A stretch of 32,802 bases of DNA from a bacterium (GTDB taxonomy: Bacteria; CLD3; SB21), in assembly GCA_031402315.1 (NCBI GenBank), contig JANNSF010000200.1, positions 1-32,802 on the forward strand. Direction: 5' to 3'. Both the position numbers and the translations under genes were made by a program. Every line of letters begins with the position of its first letter. Position 1 is the first letter of the stretch. This document shows, piece after piece, positions 6,132 through 28,995 of this stretch. Under the pieces are notes generated by a model. That model was not told where the DNA came from, searched no databases, and saw only the letters and a program-made list of their open reading frames with translations.

Positions 6132-9100
6132 ATGAATAAACTTCTACTCTGGTTAATTCTGACTATAGGGCATATGCATGCCCAGAATATTACGCGGGTC
6201 GAGTATTTTATTGATTCGGATCCCGGGTTTGACAACGCAACAACGATTCCTTTTTCTGAGTCACCCAATGTCACGGTAAACGCCCATAGTATTAGTATTG
6301 CGGCTTTGGACGGTGGATTTCATACATTGTATATTCGGGCGCGTGACGCCAATGGTAAGTGGTCGGCTATGCAGGCAAAGGCCTTTTACAAAACACCGGC
6401 TACCGGCCCTGTTGCGCCGAATGTCACTGCCGTGGAATATTTTATTGATAAGGATCCTGGTCTTGGTCTTGCAACTAACGTGCCCATTACGCCGGGAACC
6501 AACGTGGCTCAAAGTGGGATTTCTGTAGGTATTAGTTCATTGTTAGGAGGATTTCACACGTTGTATATTCGGGCCAAAGATGCGGACAGCAATTGGACCG
6601 TACTAAGCGCTAAGGCTTTTTACAAAATTCCATCGATTACCGATCCTTTGGCGAATATTGTCAAGATGGAATATTTTGTCGACAAAGATCCGGGCTTTGA
6701 TAAGGCTTCGAATATATCAATTACTCCGGGAACGGATATTACGAAGAATGAGGTTATCGATATCAGTGCGGTGAGCGGAGGATTTCATACGTTGTATATT
6801 CGGGCCAAAGATGCGGACAGCAATTGGACCGTACTAAGCGCCAAGCCTTTTTACAAAACGCCATCGATCACCGACCCGTTGGCGAATATTGTAAAGATGG
6901 AATATTTTGTCGACAAAGATCCGGGCTTTGATAAGGCTTCAAATATATTAATTACGCCGGGAACGGATATTACGAAGAATGAGGTTATCGATATCAGTGC
7001 GGTGAGCGGAGGATTTCATACGTTGTATGTTCGGGCCAAAGACTCGGACAGCAATTGGACTGTACTAAGCGCTAAGGCTTTTTACAAAACACCGCCCACG
7101 GTGGCAGCGCCTTCAAAAATTGTCGAAGTTGACTATTATTTCTTGAAGGGCGGAGTCTCAACGTTGACGCGTGCTTTTACCGGATTTTCGGCGTCGGCCA
7201 ATGTTGCCCTTAATTTTGTGCCTGATATATCCGGCCTTCAGATCGACAGTACGTATGATATGTACGTTTATGGCAGAGATTCAAGCGGTCTGCGCGGACT
7301 GGCTTCCGGCAAGTCATTCATTACTCCCGATGTTGTTCCGGCTATGCCAAAAGCGTTGACAGGCGTCGCCCAAAATGGCCAGATAATGCTGTCATGGAGT
7401 AAGAACAACGAATCCGATTTCTTGCGCTATCGCATTTATCGAAGTACTTCACCGAATGCAGTCATTCAAATCGACAGCTCGACCGGCGGAAATGCCGATA
7501 CATCGAAAACTATTTTTGGCTTGGCGAATGGCACGAATTATTATTTCAGGGTGACGGCGGTTGACTCCGCGTTTCAGGTGAGTGCGTATTCGAATGAAGT
7601 GAGCACTTCGCCAGTTGATGCGGTTCCTCCTGCAGTTCCTCAGAGCTTGATTGTAACCGCGGGAGGCCATGCCCAGATAACCATAAAGTGGAAGCCCAAT
7701 TCAGATCTTGATTTTAGACGCTATCGCATTTATCGAAATACCAGTCCGAACGCGTCTCTTCAAATAGACAGTACGAGTGGAGGAATTACGGATACGATAA
7801 GAACATATACGGGTCTTATCCCCGGGACGATGTATTATTTTAGGGTAGGTGCGGTTGACACTTCGTTTAATGTCAGCGCGTACTCGAACGAAGCCAGTGC
7901 TGTTCCGCTCGATTTAATGAATCCGGCCTCGCCGCAAAATCTTACCGCGATTGCGGGCAATGCACAAATTGTATTGACCTGGAACAGAAATTCCGAATCC
8001 GATTTCAAACGATACCGCATTTATCGAAGCACGTCGCCCAATGCGTCGATTCAATCGGACAGTACGAATGGAGGAAGTACGGATACGATAAGAACCTATA
8101 CGGGTCTTGTCCCCGGGACGACGTATTATTTTAGGGTAACGGCCGTTGATACTTCGCTCAATGTTAGTACCTATTCAAACGAGGTGAGTGCCATTCCGAT
8201 TGATTTGTCTCCACCTGCGGCTCCACAAAATTTTTCGGCAACGGCTTATGGATCGGTGGCTACTTTGAAATGGAGAAGAAATTCAGAGCCGGATTTCAAG
8301 CGATATCGTATTTATCAAAGTACATCGGCGGGCGCATCGGTTCAAGTTGATTCAACAACGGCCGGCGCTACGGATACTACAAAATCAATAGCCGGACTAT
8401 CCTTTGGCGTGACCTATTATTTTCGGGCACGTGCCGTGGATACCTCCGGACTTGCCAGCGTGTATTCGAATGAATCTTCAGTGACGACTCCGAATGTATT
8501 AAACCTCACGACTTCGATTCTTCAAAATCCCGCTCTTCCAAAATATACGGATGTTTATGTCGTGGCGGATACTCAGCTGATTTCCGCACCGGAAGTTAAA
8601 ATTTTTATTGGGAATGATTCCACAATTCTCACCATGAACCTTGTGCCTGGTTCTGCGCGAGTTTATAGAGGTTCCTACAGCCTTTTACAAAATGGCAATT
8701 ATACGATACGGACGTCGGGGACGGCGATCACCGGATCCTCGTCATTGCGTAACCGTTCTTTTACAGCGGTTTTGGCGAAGCCGAAAGAATCTTTGTTCCT
8801 AACGACTCCTGATGGACTGGCCGAACTCCGCATGGAACCTGGCATGGTATCATCCGAGGGTTTTATTCTTGGCTTTTCCGACGGTACAGTTGAATTTATA
8901 TCCGCGTTAAAACTTCAGAGGCCGGCAGAGCTTTCAATAACGATCGATCAGAACATACCGGACGTAGATAAGGCATTTATTTATGAATTGAGGGGTGGGT
9001 CTTGGCAAAAACTCAAGACTCGCTTTTACGCATCGGAACATGAACTTCGCACGAAGATTGATCGTTTGGGAACATTTAGGTTCGAGGTTGATCCGGCCTT

Positions 9101-9401
9101 TGCAGGATCCAATTTAGTGCCGGAGTCCTTTGCATTAAAAAGTAATTATCCAAATCCATTTAATCCTTCAACAACGATTGAATACGATCTTTCAAAAGAC
9201 GGTGTGATTGAACTTTCGATTTATAATGTGCTTGGTCAAAAGGTCAAAACGCTGGCGGATGGGTATTCATTAGCCGGCAACTATCGCGTCGTATGGAATG
9301 GTGATAATAGTAGCGGGATGCGTGCCGCCAGCGGGGTGTATATTTACAGGCTCAGCGTGCCGGGATACGTCCGATCGCGCCGAATGGTATTAATCAAATA
9401 G
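6132..9401 (+). CDS. very large T9SS-secreted surface protein: 5 N-terminal ~80-aa repeats (EYF[IV]D.DPG module) + 4 fibronectin type III domains + C-terminal T9SS sorting domain
   Basis: Signal peptide MNKLLLWLILTIGHMHAQ. Five repeats V(E/K)YF(I/V)D.DPG...GGFHTLYIRA.D..W...AK.FYKTP. Four FN3-like repeats each containing DF.RYRIY(R/Q)STSPNA...YYFRV.AVD. The last ~88 aa, FALKSNYPNPFNPSTTIEYDL...GVYIYRLSV...., are a canonical Por/T9SS CTD. Confidence 0.85.
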   Translation: MNKLLLWLILTIGHMHAQNITRVEYFIDSDPGFDNATTIPFSESPNVTVNAHSISIAALDGGFHTLYIRARDANGKWSAMQAKAFYKTPATGPVAPNVTAVEYFIDKDPGLGLATNVPITPGTNVAQSGISVGISSLLGGFHTLYIRAKDADSNWTVLSAKAFYKIPSITDPLANIVKMEYFVDKDPGFDKASNISITPGTDITKNEVIDISAVSGGFHTLYIRAKDADSNWTVLSAKPFYKTPSITDPLANIVKMEYFVDKDPGFDKASNILITPGTDITKNEVIDISAVSGGFHTLYVRAKDSDSNWTVLSAKAFYKTPPTVAAPSKIVEVDYYFLKGGVSTLTRAFTGFSASANVALNFVPDISGLQIDSTYDMYVYGRDSSGLRGLASGKSFITPDVVPAMPKALTGVAQNGQIMLSWSKNNESDFLRYRIYRSTSPNAVIQIDSSTGGNADTSKTIFGLANGTNYYFRVTAVDSAFQVSAYSNEVSTSPVDAVPPAVPQSLIVTAGGHAQITIKWKPNSDLDFRRYRIYRNTSPNASLQIDSTSGGITDTIRTYTGLIPGTMYYFRVGAVDTSFNVSAYSNEASAVPLDLMNPASPQNLTAIAGNAQIVLTWNRNSESDFKRYRIYRSTSPNASIQSDSTNGGSTDTIRTYTGLVPGTTYYFRVTAVDTSLNVSTYSNEVSAIPIDLSPPAAPQNFSATAYGSVATLKWRRNSEPDFKRYRIYQSTSAGASVQVDSTTAGATDTTKSIAGLSFGVTYYFRARAVDTSGLASVYSNESSVTTPNVLNLTTSILQNPALPKYTDVYVVADTQLISAPEVKIFIGNDSTILTMNLVPGSARVYRGSYSLLQNGNYTIRTSGTAITGSSSLRNRSFTAVLAKPKESLFLTTPDGLAELRMEPGMVSSEGFILGFSDGTVEFISALKLQRPAELSITIDQNIPDVDKAFIYELRGGSWQKLKTRFYASEHELRTKIDRLGTFRFEVDPAFAGSNLVPESFALKSNYPNPFNPSTTIEYDLSKDGVIELSIYNVLGQKVKTLADGYSLAGNYRVVWNGDNSSGMRAASGVYIYRLSVPGYVRSRRMVLIK
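6631..7092 (+). repeat. two tandem, near-identical 231-bp repeat units inside the large T9SS protein gene; three more divergent upstream copies start at about 6190
   Basis: 6631-6861 and 6862-7092 differ at only a few positions. Both encode SITDPLANIVKMEYFVDKDPGFDKASNI.ITPGTDITKNEVIDISAVSGGFHTLY.RAKD.DSNWTVLSAK.FYKTP. Confidence 0.85.
9135..9398 (+). other. T9SS C-terminal sorting domain coding segment of the large surface protein
   Basis: Motifs NYPNPFNPSTTIEY, IYNVLGQKV and GVYIYRL are characteristic of type A Por secretion CTDs. Confidence 0.75.
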
Positions 9402-12794: not shown

Positions 12795-13124
12795 ACGATG
12801 GATGAGTACATTCTCATTCGGAGATGAATAGATTATTTGATTTTTTTTATTTTTTTGTGGCTTATTAAGCGCTTATAGTTTTTATTAGTATAGATAGGTT
12901 CTTTATACCGACCTTGTTCGGTTTGTTTTAAGAGAGATATTGTTTTTAACACAACAATAAGATTTTGTGAATAATGAATTAGTACGATTTCTGTATTCAA
13001 CGCAATATCGGAAATCCGTCAGTCTAAAGACCGACCGATGGACGATCGAAAAGCCGGCCCCATTCGATTCTTACTATTTTAATTTCCTTTCCAGACTAAT
13101 CACTCAACCCTAATACCAAGACTC

Positions 13125-14231
13125 ATGATTGCGGCGCAACTTCATCCACAGATAATAGCTCAAAAAATAAAGGTTTGGGTTTTGGCGCCGTATTTGGTTC
13201 ATCACGATATCAATATCGACCACTATTACGATTTCAGTCAGAGTATTGCCGAATTTACGCAAACGTTTAAGCAGCTTAATCTCGATTGGCAATGGCAACC
13301 GGTCACGGTGGGTAATTACAAAGATGTAATTGATGAAATTGTTCAGGAGCAGATGGTGAAGCATTGCAATCCTGTTATACTCAATCTTTGCGATGGGGAT
13401 GAAGTCAACGGAACACCGGGAATTTCTGTGATCAAGTATCTTGTCAAAAAAGGCCTTCTCTTTACCGGTTCGGATGAATATTTTTATGACGTGACGACGT
13501 CGAAGATATCGATGAAAAATGCTTTTGATAAGGCCAAAGTTCCAACACCCAAGTGGAAAGCCATTCTGAATGCCAGTGACAATCATTTGTCCGACCTTTT
13601 TGATCGAATGGGTTCGCCGATTATTCTCAAGCCGTCCATATCGGGGGGCAGTATGGGGGTTGGTATCAAAAATGTGGTTTATAGTCCGGAACAACTCGAA
13701 GCGCAAATGCAGTTGATGTTCAAGGGTTACAGAGGCTGGCAATTGGCCATAGACGGGCTTGTCGCGGAGGAATTTATTAATGGTCCGGAGTTTACGGTTT
13801 TTATTGTGGGAAATCATGATAAGCCGGACCAGGCGATTATTTATCCTCCGGTCGAAAGAGTTTTCCATGACAGTCTGCCTGAACATGAAAAATTTTTATC
13901 GTTTGACCGGCTTTGGGAAATCTATGAAGAAGAGAAGCCGATGCCCAATGAGGAAAATTTCTACGAGTACGCTATTCCCGATATGAAGCTTCATGCGGCC
14001 ATAAAGCAAATCGCCTGGGATGCTTACGTCGCCGTGAAGGGTATGGGTTATACAAGAATTGATATCCGTGTCGATAAAGAAACGGGAAGACTTTATGTCC
14101 TAGAAGTCAATGCGCAGTGCGGTATCAGCGAGGATGAAGACTATACAAGCATTGGCGCCATCCTGAAGTTTGCCAATACATCCTTTACGGAATTGGTAGT
14201 ACAAATAATCAATAACAGTCTAAATCGTTAG
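13125..14231 (+). CDS. ATP-grasp domain protein, D-Ala-D-Ala-ligase-like fold (unknown substrate)
   Basis: ILKPSISGGSMGVGIKNVVYSPEQL resembles the ATP-grasp core (Ddl FVKPANLGSSVG). VAEEFINGPEFTVFIVGN matches E..I.GRE.. A C-terminal GYTRIDIRVDKETGRLYVLEVNAQCG matches R.D......G..Y.LE.NT.PG. Paralogous to the N-terminal 300 aa of the next gene. Confidence 0.75.
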   Translation: MIAAQLHPQIIAQKIKVWVLAPYLVHHDINIDHYYDFSQSIAEFTQTFKQLNLDWQWQPVTVGNYKDVIDEIVQEQMVKHCNPVILNLCDGDEVNGTPGISVIKYLVKKGLLFTGSDEYFYDVTTSKISMKNAFDKAKVPTPKWKAILNASDNHLSDLFDRMGSPIILKPSISGGSMGVGIKNVVYSPEQLEAQMQLMFKGYRGWQLAIDGLVAEEFINGPEFTVFIVGNHDKPDQAIIYPPVERVFHDSLPEHEKFLSFDRLWEIYEEEKPMPNEENFYEYAIPDMKLHAAIKQIAWDAYVAVKGMGYTRIDIRVDKETGRLYVLEVNAQCGISEDEDYTSIGAILKFANTSFTELVVQIINNSLNR

Positions 14232-14258
14232 CCCAACCGTTCACTTTAATTTCTCACT

Positions 14259-15692
14259 ATGAAAATATGTGTTTTGCAACCGGACTATTCCACCACGTCG
14301 GTTGATTATAAAAATTACGATCCGCCACGCCGATTTGAACACTTATGGCCGGATGCAGAAATCGACAATATTTTCCTCAACAAACTGACCACGTATAAGC
14401 AGCTACTCGCATTGAAGTCAAAGGGCTATGATATTTTTGTTAATCTTTGCGAAGGGTATCTGGAATGGGAAGTGCCATCGATCGACGTTATCTATACGAT
14501 GGAACTTCTAAATTTGCCTTTTACCGGTCCGACGAGTGCTTTGTACGATCCACCTAAAGCTCTAATGAAGTACGTCGCGTATTGCGCAGGCATCAAAACG
14601 CCTCCGTATACGCTGATTACAGCAACCAGTAATCTTGAGAAGGAATGCCAACACCTTCGTTATCCACTGTTTGTAAAGCCTTCAAAAGCCGGCGACAGTC
14701 TTGGGGTGGATGCACTTTCATTGGTGAAGAATTTCGGGCAATTGCAAAAGAAGGTGAAAAGCCTTTTACCGGAATACGGGGAATTGCTGGTCGAAGAATA
14801 TATTGCGGGAAGGGAATTTACGGTAATGGTTGCGGCCAATACCGACGGAAAAACCAGTCGAAGTTTTAAGCCGGTGGAGTATATTTTTCCCGAGGGGAAC
14901 CAATTTAAAACGTACGCCCTCAAGACATCCGAGCTTCATCCCAATGCGAATATACCGTGCGCGGACCCTGCGATTGAAAGCGAACTTCGGTTAGCCGCCG
15001 AAAAAATTTTCAAAGGTTTTAGCGGAGTAGGTTACGCACGCTTGGATTTTAGAATGAACGAGCAGCGGGAACTGTACTTTCTTGAGATTAATTTTACATG
15101 CTCCGTTTTTTATGCCGATGGTTATCAAGGCTCGGCCGACTACATTTTGGAGCACGACGGATTTGGCCAGTCCAATTTTTTGCATCACATCGTCGAGGAA
15201 GGCATGTCGCGATTTCGCCGAAAACAAAAGAAGTACGTTATCAAGGGTAATGCGATCGCGGGTTATGGTATTTACGCGACGCAGAAAATTTTTCCGGGCG
15301 AAGTGGTCTTTGTAGGGGAAGGCCGAGCGCAACGCATCGTGACAAAACGATTTGTCGAAAAAAATTGGAATAAGGAAGAACAGGAAAGTTTTAGGCGGTA
15401 CGCGTATCCGGTCAGTCATGAGATTTATATTTTGTGGGCGGATGATCCGCAAGAGTGGGCGCCTCAAAATCATTGCTGTGAACCGAATACGGCTTACGAC
15501 GGCCTTAATGTTTATGCCATCAAAGAGGTTGCTACGGGTGACGAACTGACGCTAAATTATGCTCAATTTTTGAATGAGGGAATGGAGCCGTTTGACTGCA
15601 AATGCGGCGCGGCCAATTGCATCGGAAAAATCGAAGGTGTCCACAGCAATACAGTGATCGAACGAGAAAAGAAATTGAAAGAAACCGTGTAA
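14259..15692 (+). CDS. fusion protein: N-terminal Ddl-like ATP-grasp ligase domain + C-terminal SET-domain (protein-lysine methyltransferase fold) with a post-SET Cys cluster
   Basis: The ATP-grasp part contains LFVKPSKAGDSLGVDALSL, EEYIAGREFTVMV and GYARLDFRMNEQRELYFLEINFTC. The SET part contains GYGIYATQKIFPGEVVFVGEG (the GxG...GE block), NHCCEPN (the NH[SC]C.PN pseudoknot motif), ELTLNY (the catalytic Tyr block) and CKCGAANCIGK (post-SET CxCxxxxC). Confidence 0.75.
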   Translation: MKICVLQPDYSTTSVDYKNYDPPRRFEHLWPDAEIDNIFLNKLTTYKQLLALKSKGYDIFVNLCEGYLEWEVPSIDVIYTMELLNLPFTGPTSALYDPPKALMKYVAYCAGIKTPPYTLITATSNLEKECQHLRYPLFVKPSKAGDSLGVDALSLVKNFGQLQKKVKSLLPEYGELLVEEYIAGREFTVMVAANTDGKTSRSFKPVEYIFPEGNQFKTYALKTSELHPNANIPCADPAIESELRLAAEKIFKGFSGVGYARLDFRMNEQRELYFLEINFTCSVFYADGYQGSADYILEHDGFGQSNFLHHIVEEGMSRFRRKQKKYVIKGNAIAGYGIYATQKIFPGEVVFVGEGRAQRIVTKRFVEKNWNKEEQESFRRYAYPVSHEIYILWADDPQEWAPQNHCCEPNTAYDGLNVYAIKEVATGDELTLNYAQFLNEGMEPFDCKCGAANCIGKIEGVHSNTVIEREKKLKETV

Positions 15693-24491: not shown

Positions 24492-24818
24492 TTATTTTAT
24501 TTCGATCGCAAAGTAGGCCAGAATTTTTTTGGCATCGCCGATAGGATTCCAGGTGAAATCGGGGCTCAGCCGGTCCTTAACATTCGTGGTAAGCCGAAGG
24601 GAGGCTTGCCGAATGGAGGCTGGATAAGATTCATCCGCCGCAAATCGACGCAGGCGTTCGATGCCGCTTAGCGAATGGAGATTTGAAACATTGCTTAGAA
24701 GAAAGCCTACGGCTCGTCGCGCGCAAGCTCGGGCACGGCCATCGTTGCCTTCCCTCATGGCGGTCTCGGCGTTTGACAATTCCTTTTCAATCACTTTTTG
24801 GAGATCCGTTCGGATCAT
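24492..24818 (-). CDS. hypothetical protein (108 aa), translationally coupled to upstream methyltransferase
   Basis: ATG at 24818 overlaps the MTase stop by 4 bp (ATGA). No recognisable domain. Confidence 0.5.
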   Translation of the reverse strand: MIRTDLQKVIEKELSNAETAMREGNDGRARACARRAVGFLLSNVSNLHSLSGIERLRRFAADESYPASIRQASLRLTTNVKDRLSPDFTWNPIGDAKKILAYFAIEIK

Positions 24819-25714
24819 GATTTAGACAAGGTTGAAATCATGATGATGCCCGACTGAAATTGATTTCGAATTTCAAACAGACTTCTAAATCGGGCATTCC
24901 AGTCACGCAGGCGATGAAACGTCAAACCGGACAAAGCAAGGAATTTCAAAATTGGCCAGGCCATCGAATTCAAAAACAAATTCATGGCAAAAAAAACACC
25001 GTCCGGTTTCAAAATTCGCGATATCTCCTGCAGAGCGATGTCCGGATGGCGATATTCATTGAGTGATCCACCGCATGAAACGCGTCGCGCAAAATTTTGT
25101 CGAAAAGGTAGCGCTTCGACATCCGCCAAAACAAATAGAATGCAATCATCGACACCGCTTTGCGTCGCGCGTTTGGAGGCTTGCTTTAGCATCTTTTTTG
25201 AGAAATCAACAGCCATTACTCTTGCGCTTGATCCTACCTTCTTCAAATGTTTCGCCACTTCGATCGCATAAAATCCATGGCTCGTCCCGATATCGACCAC
25301 CCAATCGTTGCCGGTCAATTCATCAAGCTTGAGCGATTCTTTCAATATGCCCGATTCTCGTGTATTTGAAAAAATGTTGCCGCACATCAGGGTCATACAC
25401 CAAGACCGCCAGTATTTCTGATAGTTCGCCGTGATGAATGGCCAAAAATTAGTGCGCTGAGCCAGCGTTAAGTTTTCCGGACGTTCTTGCAGCATCTCAA
25501 GAATACCCTCATCGTAGTGGTAGCAAGTTTGACATTCATTACAAACAATCACGGCATTCTTGAGAACGATAAGAGCCGTGGATTCGTCATGATACGGTTT
25601 AAACGACGAGGATCGGCACTCCGGGCAGACCAGAAAGTCGATTACTTCCATTACCATCGCTGCATTCGTCGCGGGTAATATTTCCGGTGCTAAATCTCTC
25701 AGTACATTTTCCAT
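24815..25714 (-). CDS. class I SAM-dependent methyltransferase with N-terminal Trm112-like zinc-ribbon
   Basis: Start chosen at ATG 25714 (MENVL...) to avoid overlapping the divergent SPFH gene; the alternative at 25846 cannot be excluded. Cys4 ribbon LVCPECRSS...VCNECQTCYHYD. The Rossmann motif VVDIGTSHGFYAI is motif I; ...VDFSKKML.. and LKPDGVFF are consistent with Methyltransf_11/25. Confidence 0.65.
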   Translation of the reverse strand: MENVLRDLAPEILPATNAAMVMEVIDFLVCPECRSSSFKPYHDESTALIVLKNAVIVCNECQTCYHYDEGILEMLQERPENLTLAQRTNFWPFITANYQKYWRSWCMTLMCGNIFSNTRESGILKESLKLDELTGNDWVVDIGTSHGFYAIEVAKHLKKVGSSARVMAVDFSKKMLKQASKRATQSGVDDCILFVLADVEALPFRQNFARRVSCGGSLNEYRHPDIALQEISRILKPDGVFFAMNLFLNSMAWPILKFLALSGLTFHRLRDWNARFRSLFEIRNQFQSGIIMISTLSKS

Positions 25715-25805
25715 GTATTCATCATGAAAAAAAATGTGGTCAATTTCAATTCTTTTTTTTATTCTAATCCATCGATTGCCATCTAAATCAAACGCAGGAG
25801 TTATT

Positions 25806-26729
25806 ATGGAAGGTTCACTATTTTGTCTCGCCGTTGCGGGATTCATTTTCTTTATCCTATTTATGGGTTCTTTTTTTGTCGTGAAACAGCAAACGGTGGG
25901 CGTCATCGAACGGTTTGGAAAATTCCTCAGGCTGGCTCAACCAGGCTTGCGATTCAAAATTCCAATCATGGATGCGCTCGTGGCGAAAGTGAATATGAGA
26001 GTGCAGCAACTGGATGTCGTCGTAGAAACAAAAACATCCGACGATGTCTTTGTGCACGCCAAAGTATCTGTTCAATATTTGGTTAGGGAAGAAAAAGTCT
26101 ATGAAGCCTATTACAAGCTTACGAACGTGCATCAGCAAATTACCGCATTTGTATTTGATCTCGTGCGCTCCAAAGTTCCAAAAATGAAACTGGATGATCT
26201 CTTTGAAAAAAAGGATGAAATTGCGGATGCCGTGCGGCTTGAACTCAGCCATGATATGGGCGAATTTGGGTATGACATTTTTAAGGCATTAGTCACCGAC
26301 ATCGAGCCGGATCAGAAAGTAAAAGAGGCGATGAATGAGATTAACGCAGCGACCCGTATGCGTATGGCGGCATCGGAAAAAGGCGAAGCGGATCGGATTT
26401 TGAAAGTAAAATCGGCCGAGGCCGAAGCCCAAAGTAAAGCTTTGCAGGGAAAGGGTATCGCCGATCAGCGCAAGGCAATCATCGAAGGATTGCGGGAGTC
26501 GGTGGAGCAATTCCAACAAGCCGTGGAAGGATCGACCGCGAAAGACGTTATGACGCTCGTTCTTATGACGCAATATTTTGATACACTGCAAAATATCGGC
26601 GAGCACTCCAAAACGAATACCATCTTGATGCCGCACTCTCCGGGTGGACTCAATCAGATTTACGACGAAATTCGCAATGCGATGGTGACGGCGGCCGAAG
26701 TTTCTAAAACGCGTACGACGAAGGAATAG
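25806..26729 (+). CDS. SPFH/Band 7 (stomatin/HflK-C-like) membrane protein
   Basis: ATG at 25806 after AGGAG. An N-terminal TM helix, then the VVKQQTVGVIERFGKFLRLAQPGLRFKIPIMD SPFH core and a C-terminal coiled coil (AEAEAQSKALQGKG...). Confidence 0.8.
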   Translation: MEGSLFCLAVAGFIFFILFMGSFFVVKQQTVGVIERFGKFLRLAQPGLRFKIPIMDALVAKVNMRVQQLDVVVETKTSDDVFVHAKVSVQYLVREEKVYEAYYKLTNVHQQITAFVFDLVRSKVPKMKLDDLFEKKDEIADAVRLELSHDMGEFGYDIFKALVTDIEPDQKVKEAMNEINAATRMRMAASEKGEADRILKVKSAEAEAQSKALQGKGIADQRKAIIEGLRESVEQFQQAVEGSTAKDVMTLVLMTQYFDTLQNIGEHSKTNTILMPHSPGGLNQIYDEIRNAMVTAAEVSKTRTTKE

Positions 26730-26798: not shown

Positions 26799-27596
26799 TT
26801 AAAGACGGATCAAATTCCGCTTATTATTCTTATCAATCGTGAGTAGGCTTCTTTCCGGGATCATGGTCCAATTGGGATGGCTGTCCAGAGGTTCGGACGC
26901 GATGACCATTGCCTTGGGGAAGGCCGGGTTTGATGAACATTCGTAAAGCGTTGTCTGACGTTTGCCGTAGTGAAAACGCAGGGCCATTATGGATTCTCCA
27001 TCGGATAGGCAAATATTAATAACGAGATCGGTTTGGAATTTTCTCGCGGCCGTTTCCAAAAGAGTAAGCGTTCCCTTCAGAGCTTCAACCTGCGCCTCAA
27101 TCGAAGCGTTTTCATCCAGTTTTAGAAAGCTCAACCACAAGGCAAAAATACGTTCTGAATCGGTATTTCCTTTGATGAGGGGTAATAGGCGAGAGTCTAG
27201 CTGGGGTGAAATGTCTGCAAAAAGTTTTTCCCAAAAAAAATCAACGGTACCATTATGCATAAAGGTGTAGCGCCCGTAGTTGAAGGGGTGAGTGTTCGTG
27301 ATGCCTACCGGCATTCCGTCGGACGCGCCTCGGACATGCGCCATGACAATAGGCGCCGAAATCTTATCCGCCATCGACATAACATTGGGGTCATTCGTAA
27401 TAGGTAGCGTGTGTCGGTAAACAGCTGCATTTTTTGAAAAACCGCAGTACCACGCAAATCCAAACCCATCGGTATTCATTCCGTCGGTCGCCATTTCAGA
27501 CGCGGCGTAGCTCTGTTTGATTAGTGAATGGGGCGGTTCACTTATTATTTTGGATAGCAGAATTTCCGGACCCTTGTAAATTGCCATGCGACACAT
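26799..27596 (-). CDS. class II (Ntn-type) glutamine amidotransferase, YafJ/EgtC-like
   Basis: N-terminal MCRMAIYKG gives the nucleophile Cys2 after Met removal. HVRGASDGMPVGITNTHPF and FMHNGTV motifs are present. GGAG RBS. Confidence 0.75.
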   Translation of the reverse strand: MCRMAIYKGPEILLSKIISEPPHSLIKQSYAASEMATDGMNTDGFGFAWYCGFSKNAAVYRHTLPITNDPNVMSMADKISAPIVMAHVRGASDGMPVGITNTHPFNYGRYTFMHNGTVDFFWEKLFADISPQLDSRLLPLIKGNTDSERIFALWLSFLKLDENASIEAQVEALKGTLTLLETAARKFQTDLVINICLSDGESIMALRFHYGKRQTTLYECSSNPAFPKAMVIASEPLDSHPNWTMIPERSLLTIDKNNKRNLIRL

Positions 27597-27621: not shown

Positions 27622-28995
27622 TTAGATGTCGTACATAGCTAAACAAATTTTTCGCTCTTGTTCAAGACTAATAATCGGCGGGAAATAACCGGAATTCGAG
27701 AGTTCGAAATTATGAATGGCACGCGGTGACGCTTCGCGCAATTCAGGAACCCAACGTTTGATATATTCTGCCTCCGGATCAAATTTTTTTCCCTGCGTAA
27801 CCGGGTTGAAAATTCTAAAGTATGGCGCGGCGTCAACACCTGTACCCGCAGCCCATTGCCAATTGCCGTTATTGCTTGATAGTTCAAAATCTAAGAGTTT
27901 TTTTGCAAAATATTTTTCACCTAAACGCCAATCCACATGCAGGTGTTTAACTAAAAACGATGCCACAATCATTCTCACACGATTATGCATGAGGCCGGTA
28001 GTATTGATTTCACGCATGCCCGCGTCCACGATCGGAAATCCCGTTTGTCCAAGTCGCCAGGCTTCAAACAGGCGTGAATCATTTGCCCATGCGATTCGGT
28101 CGAATTTAGAATTGAAACATCGTTTCTCAACGTATGGGAATTGGAATAAGATCATCATGAAAAATTCCCGCCAAATGAGTTCGGACAAAAATGTTTGTTC
28201 ACCGATGCCGGAATCATTTCTTAAATCGGCCACGAGGCGTCGGACGGAAATATTTCCAAATCGCAAATAGGGAGACAGATGCGATGTCTTGTCAATAGCT
28301 GGTAAATCGCGATTTTTGTCATATTGGCGAATATCCTTCTGAAAGGTATTCCATGTAGTGGTAGCGGCGGATTCTCCTCCGGTGAGTATATTCGATTGTA
28401 ATTTAAAGCCGATTTCGTCTAAAAACGAAATCGTTGGGATCGTAGATTCAAAAGTCGTAATTCGATTCAATTCAATGGTCGGTGCTTTAAAAAAATCAGA
28501 CGGGAGGAAGGCACAGCCCTGAAGCCATTTGTTTTTATAAGCGGTAAAAACTTTATACGGCGAAAAATCATCCTTCACGATCTCTGATTTTTCAAAAATG
28601 ACATGGTCCTTGAAGGATTCGGCATGAATGGAGAAGCTTTGAGCCTGCGATTTTATTTTGGAATCGCGCTCCATGGCAAACGGTTCATAATCGTGATTAA
28701 AATACAACGCCTGGAATTTTTGGGTCTTATACAGTTCGATAAAGACTTCTTCCGGACGACCGTGGAATAAGGTGACGCCGGCCTGGAATGGTTTCAACTG
28801 ATTCTGCAAATCCATCAGCGATTGCCAAATAAACGTCAGCCGACGGTCATTAGTGGGTAGTTTGCCCAAAATTTCAGGATCGAAAATAAAGATGAGTGAA
28901 ACGTTTTTAGCGTCACGCAAGGCCTCGGCTAGCGCGGTATTGTCGGATAACCGCAGATCGCGGCGGAGCCATACAATTGCGTGGTCAAATGTCAT
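27622..28995 (-). CDS. phr: deoxyribodipyrimidine photo-lyase / cryptochrome-photolyase family protein
   Basis: N-terminal photolyase alpha/beta domain IVWLRRDLRLSDNTAL; C-terminal FAD-binding domain with LSPYLRFG, WREFF, GWMHNRVRM-like (GLMHNRVRMIVASFL) and NGNWQWAAG motifs. 457 aa. Confidence 0.85.
   Translation of the reverse strand: MTFDHAIVWLRRDLRLSDNTALAEALRDAKNVSLIFIFDPEILGKLPTNDRRLTFIWQSLMDLQNQLKPFQAGVTLFHGRPEEVFIELYKTQKFQALYFNHDYEPFAMERDSKIKSQAQSFSIHAESFKDHVIFEKSEIVKDDFSPYKVFTAYKNKWLQGCAFLPSDFFKAPTIELNRITTFESTIPTISFLDEIGFKLQSNILTGGESAATTTWNTFQKDIRQYDKNRDLPAIDKTSHLSPYLRFGNISVRRLVADLRNDSGIGEQTFLSELIWREFFMMILFQFPYVEKRCFNSKFDRIAWANDSRLFEAWRLGQTGFPIVDAGMREINTTGLMHNRVRMIVASFLVKHLHVDWRLGEKYFAKKLLDFELSSNNGNWQWAAGTGVDAAPYFRIFNPVTQGKKFDPEAEYIKRWVPELREASPRAIHNFELSNSGYFPPIISLEQERKICLAMYDI

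Follow-up and report, generated by a model that had tools for sequence, protein, structure and literature searches.

The two adjacent genes examined here, AG1 and AG2-SET, are proposed to encode the core pair of enzymes in a conserved ATP-grasp/SET biosynthetic cassette without published function, in which ATP-dependent amide ligation of small substrates would be coupled to SAM-dependent methylation. We assign this reading a probability of about one half. The cassette most likely acts on a small, peptide-like metabolite, which it would build and methylate, and less likely on a protein. The family itself is real and uncharacterised, and combines known kinds of enzyme without introducing a new principle. 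Positions below refer to the window, the whole 32.8-kb stretch of DNA that was analysed, where the features of the locus are as follows.

12907..12922, + strand: hairpin followed by a T-run, terminator-like, 3' of hbd (consensus scan, pattern match only)
12946..12975, + strand: candidate sigma-70-like promoter, TTAACA-18 nt-AATAAT, 10/12 matches (consensus scan)
13125..14231, + strand: AG1, stand-alone Ddl-like ATP-grasp ligase, 368 aa
14232..14258, no strand assigned: AG1/AG2-SET intergenic spacer, 27 bp
14259..15692, + strand: AG2-SET, complete ORF, 477 aa
14259..15233, + strand: Ddl-like ATP-grasp domain of AG2-SET, residues 1-325
15240..15641, + strand: SET-A methyltransferase domain of AG2-SET, residues ~328-461 (Pfam SET, invariant residues, PDB profile match)

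Inspection of the locus bears out an earlier note on this DNA, which had described two ATP-grasp genes 27 bp apart at 13125-15692: both ORFs lie on the + strand at exactly these coordinates, with the TAG stop of AG1 at 14229-14231 and the ATG of AG2-SET at 14259. The short spacer and shared strand suggest that the two are co-transcribed. In close relatives, the two genes overlap by 4 nt at one extreme and lie 154 nt apart at the other. The flanks are also as that note had them, with hbd upstream (3HCDH_N 6e-68; NF004474 461 bits) and a convergent DUF4349 lipoprotein gene downstream (E 2.3e-54), the stop of which lies 14 bp from that of AG2-SET. Upstream of AG1 is the AT-rich 330-bp region already remarked on, at 34% GC versus 45% for the window. 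The candidate promoter falls within this spacer and is a weak call, as the host apparently belongs to the FCB group, whose promoters lie outside the model used by the scan; the hairpin downstream of hbd may mark the upstream limit of the AG1/AG2-SET unit, as far as a pattern match indicates. An Rfam scan of the window returned no match at the gathering score, and a riboswitch or leader RNA 5' of AG1 was rejected, the spacer yielding only PhrS at chance level (E 0.59). A 258-aa ORF at 13110-13886 (- strand) is antisense to AG1 and was treated as spurious.

Profile searches of both proteins, the check that had been proposed, identify Dala_Dala_lig_C in AG1 (E 2.9e-16) and in AG2 (E 3.6e-22), and SET in the latter protein. 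AG1 and AG2-SET are indeed paralogues, with 27% identity over 289 residues (BLASTP E 5e-21). The ATP-grasp fold with Ddl-type N-terminal, central and C-terminal domains is present, and D-Ala-D-Ala ligases are the nearest relatives of both by sequence and by predicted fold. The shared motifs reported earlier (KVWVLAPY/KICVLQPDY, NLCDG/NLCEGY, KPS..G.S.GV and R(I/L)D(I/F)R...LE(V/I)N) are present, except that AG2 has V, not I/L, directly ahead of KPS. Catalytic residues were read from an alignment with E. coli DdlB, whose sequence was checked against 1iov/2dln. Both ATP-grasp domains keep the DdlB set of K144, S151, E180, E187, R255, D257, E270 (E or D) and N272, as K169, S176, E215, E222, R311, D313, E327 and N329 in AG1 and as K140, S147, E179/E180, E186, R261, D263, E276 and N278 in AG2. 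AG1 additionally carries an invariant aromatic/acidic block, FLSFDRLWEIYEE..MP...FYEY, at residues 257-282.

The C-terminal part of AG2-SET is a full SET domain, as first described, here termed SET-A to set it apart from SET-B, the second and stand-alone SET type of related loci. Pfam SET (PF00856) matches residues 335-434 over profile positions 1-104 of 105 (E 7.2e-8; 33.2 bits versus a cut-off of 22.4), and the domain contains GYG (335-337) followed by GE, NHCCEPN (404-410, with NH at 404-405), ELTLNY (429-434, with Y434) and a post-SET CKCGAANC; C407, C447, C449 and C454 make up a post-SET Zn-type cluster. These motifs and the cysteine cluster are invariant or nearly so among homologues of 29-47% identity, with H405, C447, C449 and C454 invariant across 26 diverse homologues. 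A profile of the SET-A family finds the KMT2A SET domain in the PDB at 1.3e-16 over 129 of 137 positions, and the methionine methyltransferase BurB at 1e-13 over the C-terminal half only; on these scores SET-A is most like the canonical histone-lysine methyltransferases (KMT2A/ASH1L/Set1), and it carries a long aromatic-rich insert. The structure model of the fusion is of moderate confidence (pLDDT 76.6), with low values in the active-site loops. Both ORFs are full length and free of frameshifts, and none of the catalytic residues is missing. The two ligases and the methyltransferase domain alike look catalytically competent.

To place the locus in context, a four-gene cassette was defined as SET-B, AG1, AG2-SET-A and ABC_membrane_3, adjacent on one strand. 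This gene order is found in 31 of 33 informative Chitinophagaceae loci, and the ABC_membrane_3 gene in 23 of 36. The three closest relatives (L123-L125, 69-72% identity) carry the full cassette with overlapping stops and starts, the complete form also occurs in most of L001-L036, and a 63%-GC contig carries the same four parts. Neither SET-B nor ABC_membrane_3 has a homologue within the window, which holds AG1 and AG2-SET-A only; the cluster is an incomplete two-gene version of the four-gene cassette. The same modules are elsewhere fused in many orders, as AG-SETA-SETB (11), SETB-AG (2), AG-SETA-SETB-AG and AG1-AG2, in addition to AG-SET and tight operons, which argues that AG, SET-A and SET-B form one functional system and supports functional coupling of ligase and methyltransferase. 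This upholds the coupling proposed in the earlier note. Its further claim, that one protein or peptide is both ligated and methylated, fares less well as stated, given that the partner SET-B resembles an enzyme of free methionine.

Thousands of homologues of the AG-SET fusion exist, most of them in Chitinophagaceae, and the AG/SET combination occurs in soil and freshwater Bacteroidota, many other bacteria, amoebae and green algae. The eukaryotic copies of the fusion, amoebal and algal, include single genes with introns; a bacterial operon partner is therefore not needed for function. Among 42 diverse AG-SET loci, about 30 lack SET-B in the flanking sequence available, and no neighbour recurs beyond local synteny apart from adjacent ABC genes, so gene context is mostly uninformative. 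Exporter-type ABC genes directly adjoin AG-SET in at least five of these diverse loci, a modest enrichment. In high-GC loci, where naive longest-ORF calls gave antisense artefacts, genes were called with a frame-composition score trained per locus on its own AG-SET. A survey of neighbourhoods for a small substrate ORF or ribosomal-protein-type partner, as had been suggested, turned up no small ORF, partner protein or riboswitch that is conserved within the cassette or around it. A putative amine-oxidase/demethylase neighbour was discarded, as the DAO gene beside AG-SET in L037 scores 299 bits against glycerol-3-phosphate dehydrogenase and resembles GlpD. AdoMet-decarboxylase genes adjoin AG-SET in two loci only (L038, L040), both below the SpeH cut-off, and are suggestive only. 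Our literature search found no paper on the AG-SET architecture, in line with the earlier view that it is undescribed. The family is nevertheless very common and already named automatically in databases ("SET domain-containing protein-lysine N-methyltransferase", "D-alanine-D-alanine ligase"), and is thus uncharacterised rather than unseen.

A pointer to the substrate comes from SET-B, whose profile matches BurB in the PDB at 5.6e-24 and its next match, a histone methyltransferase, at 3e-11, making BurB by far its nearest solved relative. BurB, itself a SET enzyme, has free methionine as its substrate and methylates it within a sealed pocket, and demonstrates that SET enzymes can act on free amino acids (PMC12542666); it was the sole example of a metabolite-directed SET enzyme found in our literature search. 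The likeness of SET-B to BurB points to a free amino-acid substrate for the cassette, and the exporter-type ABC neighbours fit a secreted small product.

A sequence of steps can be proposed on this basis. The analysis establishes the identity of the domains, the integrity of their catalytic motifs and the linkage of the modules, while the small-molecule nature of the substrates, the step order and the export are inferred. Each ATP-grasp enzyme would use ATP-Mg to convert a substrate carboxylate to an acyl-phosphate, and attack by an amine would then form an amide bond, as in D-Ala-D-Ala ligase; together, the two ligases may assemble a di- or tripeptide-like small molecule. The methyltransferase domain of AG2-SET would bind SAM and methylate a nucleophilic atom in the substrate or product, most likely an amine and possibly more than once. 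In most relatives, the BurB-like SET-B would add further methylation, and the ABC-type membrane protein probably exports the product. With its ligase-ligase-SET core only, the window may yield a less methylated product or rely on partners encoded elsewhere in the genome. That is to say, the window copy could be functionally reduced, given that SET-B and the ABC-type gene are missing there. A more tentative extension is that the cassette is a widespread pathway to a methylated, permanently charged peptide-like metabolite (quaternary-ammonium and/or sulfonium). In that case the SET domains would methylate small molecules, with the BurB-like SET-B providing a building block of the S-methylmethionine type. 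Such a product could be a new compatible solute, a signal that is secreted or, outside marine settings, a source of methylated sulfur/nitrogen volatiles.

Of the alternatives, the one that deserves most weight, although we consider it rather unlikely, is that the ATP-grasp enzymes attach amino acids to some housekeeping protein, at a side chain or at a terminus, in the manner of RimK or TTL, with the SET domain methylating a lysine or N-terminus of that same protein. SET-A has all parts of a canonical SET domain and resembles lysine methyltransferases most closely, characterised SET enzymes to our knowledge nearly all use proteins, and the absence of a conserved neighbour would suit a universal protein target. 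The ATP-grasp domains, however, group structurally with the small-molecule ligases Ddl and VanA and not with RimK, LysX, TTL or graspetide ligases, and the RimK family model TIGR00768 (rimK_fam) gives 30.7 bits versus a cut-off of 143.4; the BurB-like SET-B and exporter-type neighbours likewise speak for a free amino acid and a secreted small product. Eukaryotic TTLL12 also joins SET-like and ATP-grasp (TTL) domains, but in reversed order, and it reportedly did not catalyse histone methylation (PMC3520985). An improbable explanation is that the window holds a decaying remnant, in which an ancestral four-gene cassette has lost SET-B and the ABC-type gene, leaving AG1 and AG2-SET unable to make the native product. 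The four-gene state of the closest relatives, the missing homologues across 32.8 kb and the unrelated flanking genes are all consistent with such loss. Against it stand two full-length, unframeshifted genes with all catalytic residues in place. Adjacent SET-B is also missing in the Ferruginibacter-type genomes L017 and L032, the partners could sit elsewhere in the genome, and the AG-SET core evidently works alone, since most diverse family members lack SET-B in the flanks available.

Two further explanations can be largely set aside. It is very doubtful that AG1 and/or AG2 are cell-wall D-Ala-D-X ligase paralogues supplying a peptidoglycan dipeptide, with SET as an unrelated add-on. Ddl and VanA are the best sequence and fold matches, yet the Ddl models TIGR01205 and NF002378 (curated cut-offs 245.65 and 243) score only 74.2 and 80.7 bits for AG1 and 90.2 and 83.7 bits for AG2. 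In the DdlB alignment, the N-terminal D-Ala1-binding motif GGxSxExxVS with E15 is absent from both proteins, and AG1 has W and AG2 has T in place of Y216. No mur/fts gene occurs among the roughly 34 ORFs of the window that were scanned, and neither a persistent SET fusion nor copies in an amoeba and an alga fit a role in murein. Least credible of all is a graspetide/RiPP pathway, in which a peptide precursor made by the ribosome would be macrocyclised by the ATP-grasp enzymes and then methylated by SET. Tandem ATP-grasp genes are known from microviridin-type clusters, but neither enzyme classified as MdnB/C-type and no conserved small ORF accompanies the cassette. As the earlier note had observed, no precursor-peptide ORF is evident: spacer ORFs of at least 20 aa show no conservation across related loci, and the 48-aa ORF upstream of AG1 has no counterpart in 36 of them.

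Should the small-molecule reading hold, thousands of genes bearing the automatic names quoted above would be mis-named and would define a way of making a methylated peptide-like metabolite without the ribosome, and the very short list of metabolite-acting SET enzymes would grow; a two- to four-gene cassette would also be tractable for heterologous expression. Were a protein the target instead, the locus would represent a bacterial coupling of amino-acid tailing and methylation on one target, in formal parallel to eukaryotic TTLL12.

Several known systems can be compared with the cassette. Relative to DdlB, DdlA and VanA, aligned homologues are only 20-28% identical to DdlB, AG1 has extra conserved inserts, AG2 is fused to SET and the cell-wall gene context is missing, in addition to the lost E15 D-Ala1 loop, replaced Y216 and low family scores. 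RimK, LysX and ArgX differ in that no S6 or LysW partner gene is found here, and fold scores of the AG domains to them are clearly below those for Ddl. Ngg of Sinorhizobium/Pseudomonas unites a GNAT acetyltransferase and an ATP-grasp dipeptide synthase to make the osmolyte NAGGN. As a functional analogy only, it likewise combines a dipeptide ligase and a tailoring transferase in a single polypeptide to give a modified dipeptide, albeit with GNAT in place of SET and an ATP-grasp of another clade. TTLL12, the only published protein found that joins SET-like and ATP-grasp-superfamily domains, carries its SET-like domain at the N-terminus, ahead of a TTL-type ATP-grasp (PMC3520985), an arrangement that AG2-SET does not share. 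BurB, the methionine S-methyltransferase of Burkholderia thailandensis (PDB 9l4t), is a minimal bacterial SET enzyme with a free amino-acid substrate and a closed pocket, and stands alone in the DMSP/malleicyprol pathway (PMC12542666). SET-B of related loci matches it specifically, and SET-A shares its C-terminal half and post-SET motif; in contrast, the window has no BurB-like gene, and SET-A is closer to KMT2A and carries the aromatic-rich insert. The chemistry proposed here is that of the L-amino-acid ligases and their like (BL00235, BacD/YwfE, RizA, PGM1), ATP-grasp enzymes that convert free amino acids to di- or oligopeptide metabolites without a ribosome or NRPS.

Inspection of the window places the two ligase genes 27 bp apart at exactly the coordinates that an earlier note, made from sequence alone, had assigned to their reading frames, and every motif it quoted is present in the two proteins:

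13125-14231, + strand: AG1, stand-alone Ddl-like ATP-grasp ligase (ORF, 368 aa)
14259-15692, + strand: AG2-SET, paralogous ATP-grasp domain fused to a SET domain of the type termed SET-A (ORF, 477 aa)
13887-13964 (residues 255-280) and 13893-13970 (residues 257-282): further AG1 features beyond that note, an aromatic/acidic block and an extra YRGW insert

The neighbours are also as that note described, with a 3-hydroxybutyryl-CoA dehydrogenase gene (hbd) upstream of AG1 and a convergent DUF4349 lipoprotein gene downstream, whose stop codon lies 14 bp past that of AG2-SET. The 330-bp spacer 5' of AG1, described as AT-rich, indeed has 34% GC versus 45% window-wide, and contains a hairpin resembling a terminator, 3' of hbd, and a single promoter-like site. 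A 258-aa ORF antisense to AG1 (13110-13886, - strand) was judged to be a spurious by-product of the AG1 reading frame. The remaining genes of the window have no functional connection to AG1 or AG2-SET. A T9SS type-A sorting domain (TIGR04183, 35.4 bits versus a cut-off of 23) ends a 1089-aa fn3-rich protein (6132-9398, + strand) and suggests a Bacteroidota/FCB host. Elsewhere in the window, a 484-aa protein (763-2214, + strand) combines discoidin (F5/8 type C), DM9 repeats and a farnesoic-acid-O-methyltransferase-type domain, a mix that looks eukaryote-like although the contig is bacterial. A class-I SAM methyltransferase (Methyltransf_11/25; 24818-25906, - strand) has an N-terminal extension of ~190 residues without a Pfam match. 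An EgtC-like class-II amidotransferase (26802-27596, - strand; 209.8 bits, just below the EgtC cut-off of 218.65) adjoins a photolyase (27625-28995, - strand), where neither EgtB nor EgtD is visible in the window.

Both ATP-grasp domains match the Pfam family for the C-terminal ATP-grasp domain of D-Ala-D-Ala ligase (AG1, E 2.9e-16; AG2-SET, E 3.6e-22), and AG1 and AG2-SET are paralogous (27% identity across 289 residues, E 5e-21). Alignment with E. coli DdlB, identical in sequence to PDB 1iov/2dln, reveals that K144, S151, E180, E187, R255, D257 and N272 (DdlB numbering) are kept in both domains, and position E270 stays acidic. In this alignment neither domain has the N-terminal GGxSxExxVS loop (in Ddl, its E15 binds the first D-alanine), and in place of Y216 AG2 has T and AG1 has W. 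Ddl family models score the domains at 74-90 bits versus cut-offs of 243-246. By these comparisons AG1 and AG2 are predicted to be Ddl-like enzymes, not D-Ala-D-Ala ligases. AG1 additionally carries an invariant aromatic/acidic block at residues 257-282 (FLSFDRLWEIYEE..MP...FYEY); neither this block nor the YRGW insert is present in DdlB or AG2, and we speculate that the block could form a cage for a cationic, methylated group. AlphaFold2 modelled AG1 with pLDDT 86.0 and pTM 0.88, and the fusion with moderate confidence (pLDDT 76.6, pTM 0.71).

The SET fold proposed for residues ~330-470 of the fusion stands up to profile search, where Pfam SET matches residues 335-434 at 33.2 bits (gathering score 22.4) and spans profile positions 1-104 of 105, a full-length domain. 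The SET part has GYG, NHCCEPN, ELTLNY (Y434) and the post-SET cysteines, and 26 homologues (29-47% identity) all share H405, C447, C449 and C454.

Gene order in relatives was sampled in 36 species-representative genomes. AG1 lies directly 5' of AG2-SET in 33/33 loci with upstream sequence, preceded in 31/33 by a stand-alone, BurB-like SET protein of 160-170 aa (SET-B), and an ABC_membrane_3 protein (~310 aa) follows in 23/36. The window fusion's three nearest relatives (72, 70 and 69% identity) all have the cassette SET-B, AG1, AG2-SET, ABC_membrane_3, with gene boundaries down to 4-nt overlaps. On a 63%-GC contig with a fusion 47% identical, all four parts point the same way: SET-B, an ABC membrane protein, AG1 (split into two gene calls) and AG2-SET. 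In metagenomes, 12 of 42 diverse bacterial AG-SETA loci have a fused or neighbouring SET-B, and exporter-type ABC genes, the only other conserved neighbours there, directly adjoin AG-SETA in at least five. Genes resembling AdoMet decarboxylase lie beside AG-SET in two unrelated contigs (L038 10887-11249, L040 10051-10848; 52-58 bits, where the SpeH model's cut-off is 75.65); the L038 locus also has an AlaDh_PNT dehydrogenase, SET-B and DUF3326. An apparent FAD-oxidase link was dropped, the gene being GlpD. Gene context is informative in some lineages only.

Scanning 184 proteins, both representatives and cluster members, with HMMs built for this analysis revealed the modules in several fused forms, a number of them also confirmed by Pfam.

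Domain architectures and number of proteins
AG-SETA: 88
AG only, many of them fragments: 58
AG-SETA-SETB: 11
SETB-AG: 2
AG-SETA-SETB-AG: 1
AG1-AG2: 1
Five SET-B units, then AG-SETA (algal protein): 1

The C-terminal domain of one protein (P0126) is 40% identical to Chitinophagaceae SET-B (E 6e-28). At the level of sequence, the analysis shows two predicted intact Ddl-like ligases and one predicted intact SET methyltransferase that are genetically tied to one another.

The fusion has 3491 significant matches in a 90%-clustered database, and 229 representatives of 50%-identity clusters match at E <1e-30. The best 120 of the 3491 (65-72% identity) bear automatic names only; most are from Chitinophagaceae, Ferruginibacter and Pedobacter MAGs. 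AG1 has 4390 matches of similar distribution, including cultured Parasediminibacterium paludis. Eukaryotic members occur in Vermamoeba and Mesostigma (M. viride, 1415 aa, five tandem SET-B-like units before AG-SET-A) and in a giant 6220-aa protein with AG-SET-A at its extreme C-terminus. On two contigs of mostly eukaryote-type genes (654 and 667 kb), the ATP-grasp and SET parts were called as separate ORFs with ~0.6 kb between them, a gap compatible with an intron. About 40 loci (L082-L122, for example L095, L109, L115, L118, L120 and L121) hold SET-less, stand-alone ATP-grasp proteins of ~330 aa from the same family; a subset shares a neighbourhood of two permease-like genes and an ATPase (ABC components), two further conserved genes and a family-4 glycosidase-like gene.

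The best solved relative of SET-B is BurB (E 1.4e-14 by single sequence, 5.6e-24 by profile; next solved match 3e-11), a SET-type S-methyltransferase that acts on free methionine, in a pocket closed off when SAM binds, and for which the related acids tested were not substrates (PMC12542666). The system thus includes at least one SET type from a small-molecule clade. We give a probability of roughly 0.5 to the ligation of small substrates combined with SET methylation. Each ligase would pass through an acyl-phosphate to join small substrates by an amide bond, and SET-A would methylate an amine or other nucleophile of either the substrate or the product; where the cassette is complete, SET-B may add a further methyl group and the ABC-type protein may export the product.

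Tailing of a protein plus its methylation appears unlikely to us; on this point the fused SET-A domain is by its sequence undiagnostic either way, its profile aligning with the KMT2A SET domain over 129/137 positions (E 1.3e-16) and with BurB at 1e-13. The window's 32.8 kb holds no SET-B or ABC_membrane_3 homologue, and two Ferruginibacter-type loci likewise have no SET-B; that the pair is a functionally reduced remnant seems more doubtful still. A cell-wall Ddl and a graspetide macrocyclase receive little weight, because defining features of each were checked and not found.

The earlier note knew of no characterised ATP-grasp-SET architecture, and the literature searched likewise contains no paper describing one. 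Each part belongs to a known kind of enzyme, and it is their persistent combination that is uncharacterised. The sole published SET/ATP-grasp combination found there is eukaryotic TTLL12, which differs from AG2-SET in its reverse domain order and TTL-type ATP-grasp and is reported not to catalyse histone methylation (PMC3520985). Nearest in function are analogues that include the ATP-grasp L-amino-acid ligases. A further near analogue is Ngg, a GNAT-ATP-grasp enzyme that makes a modified dipeptide osmolyte.
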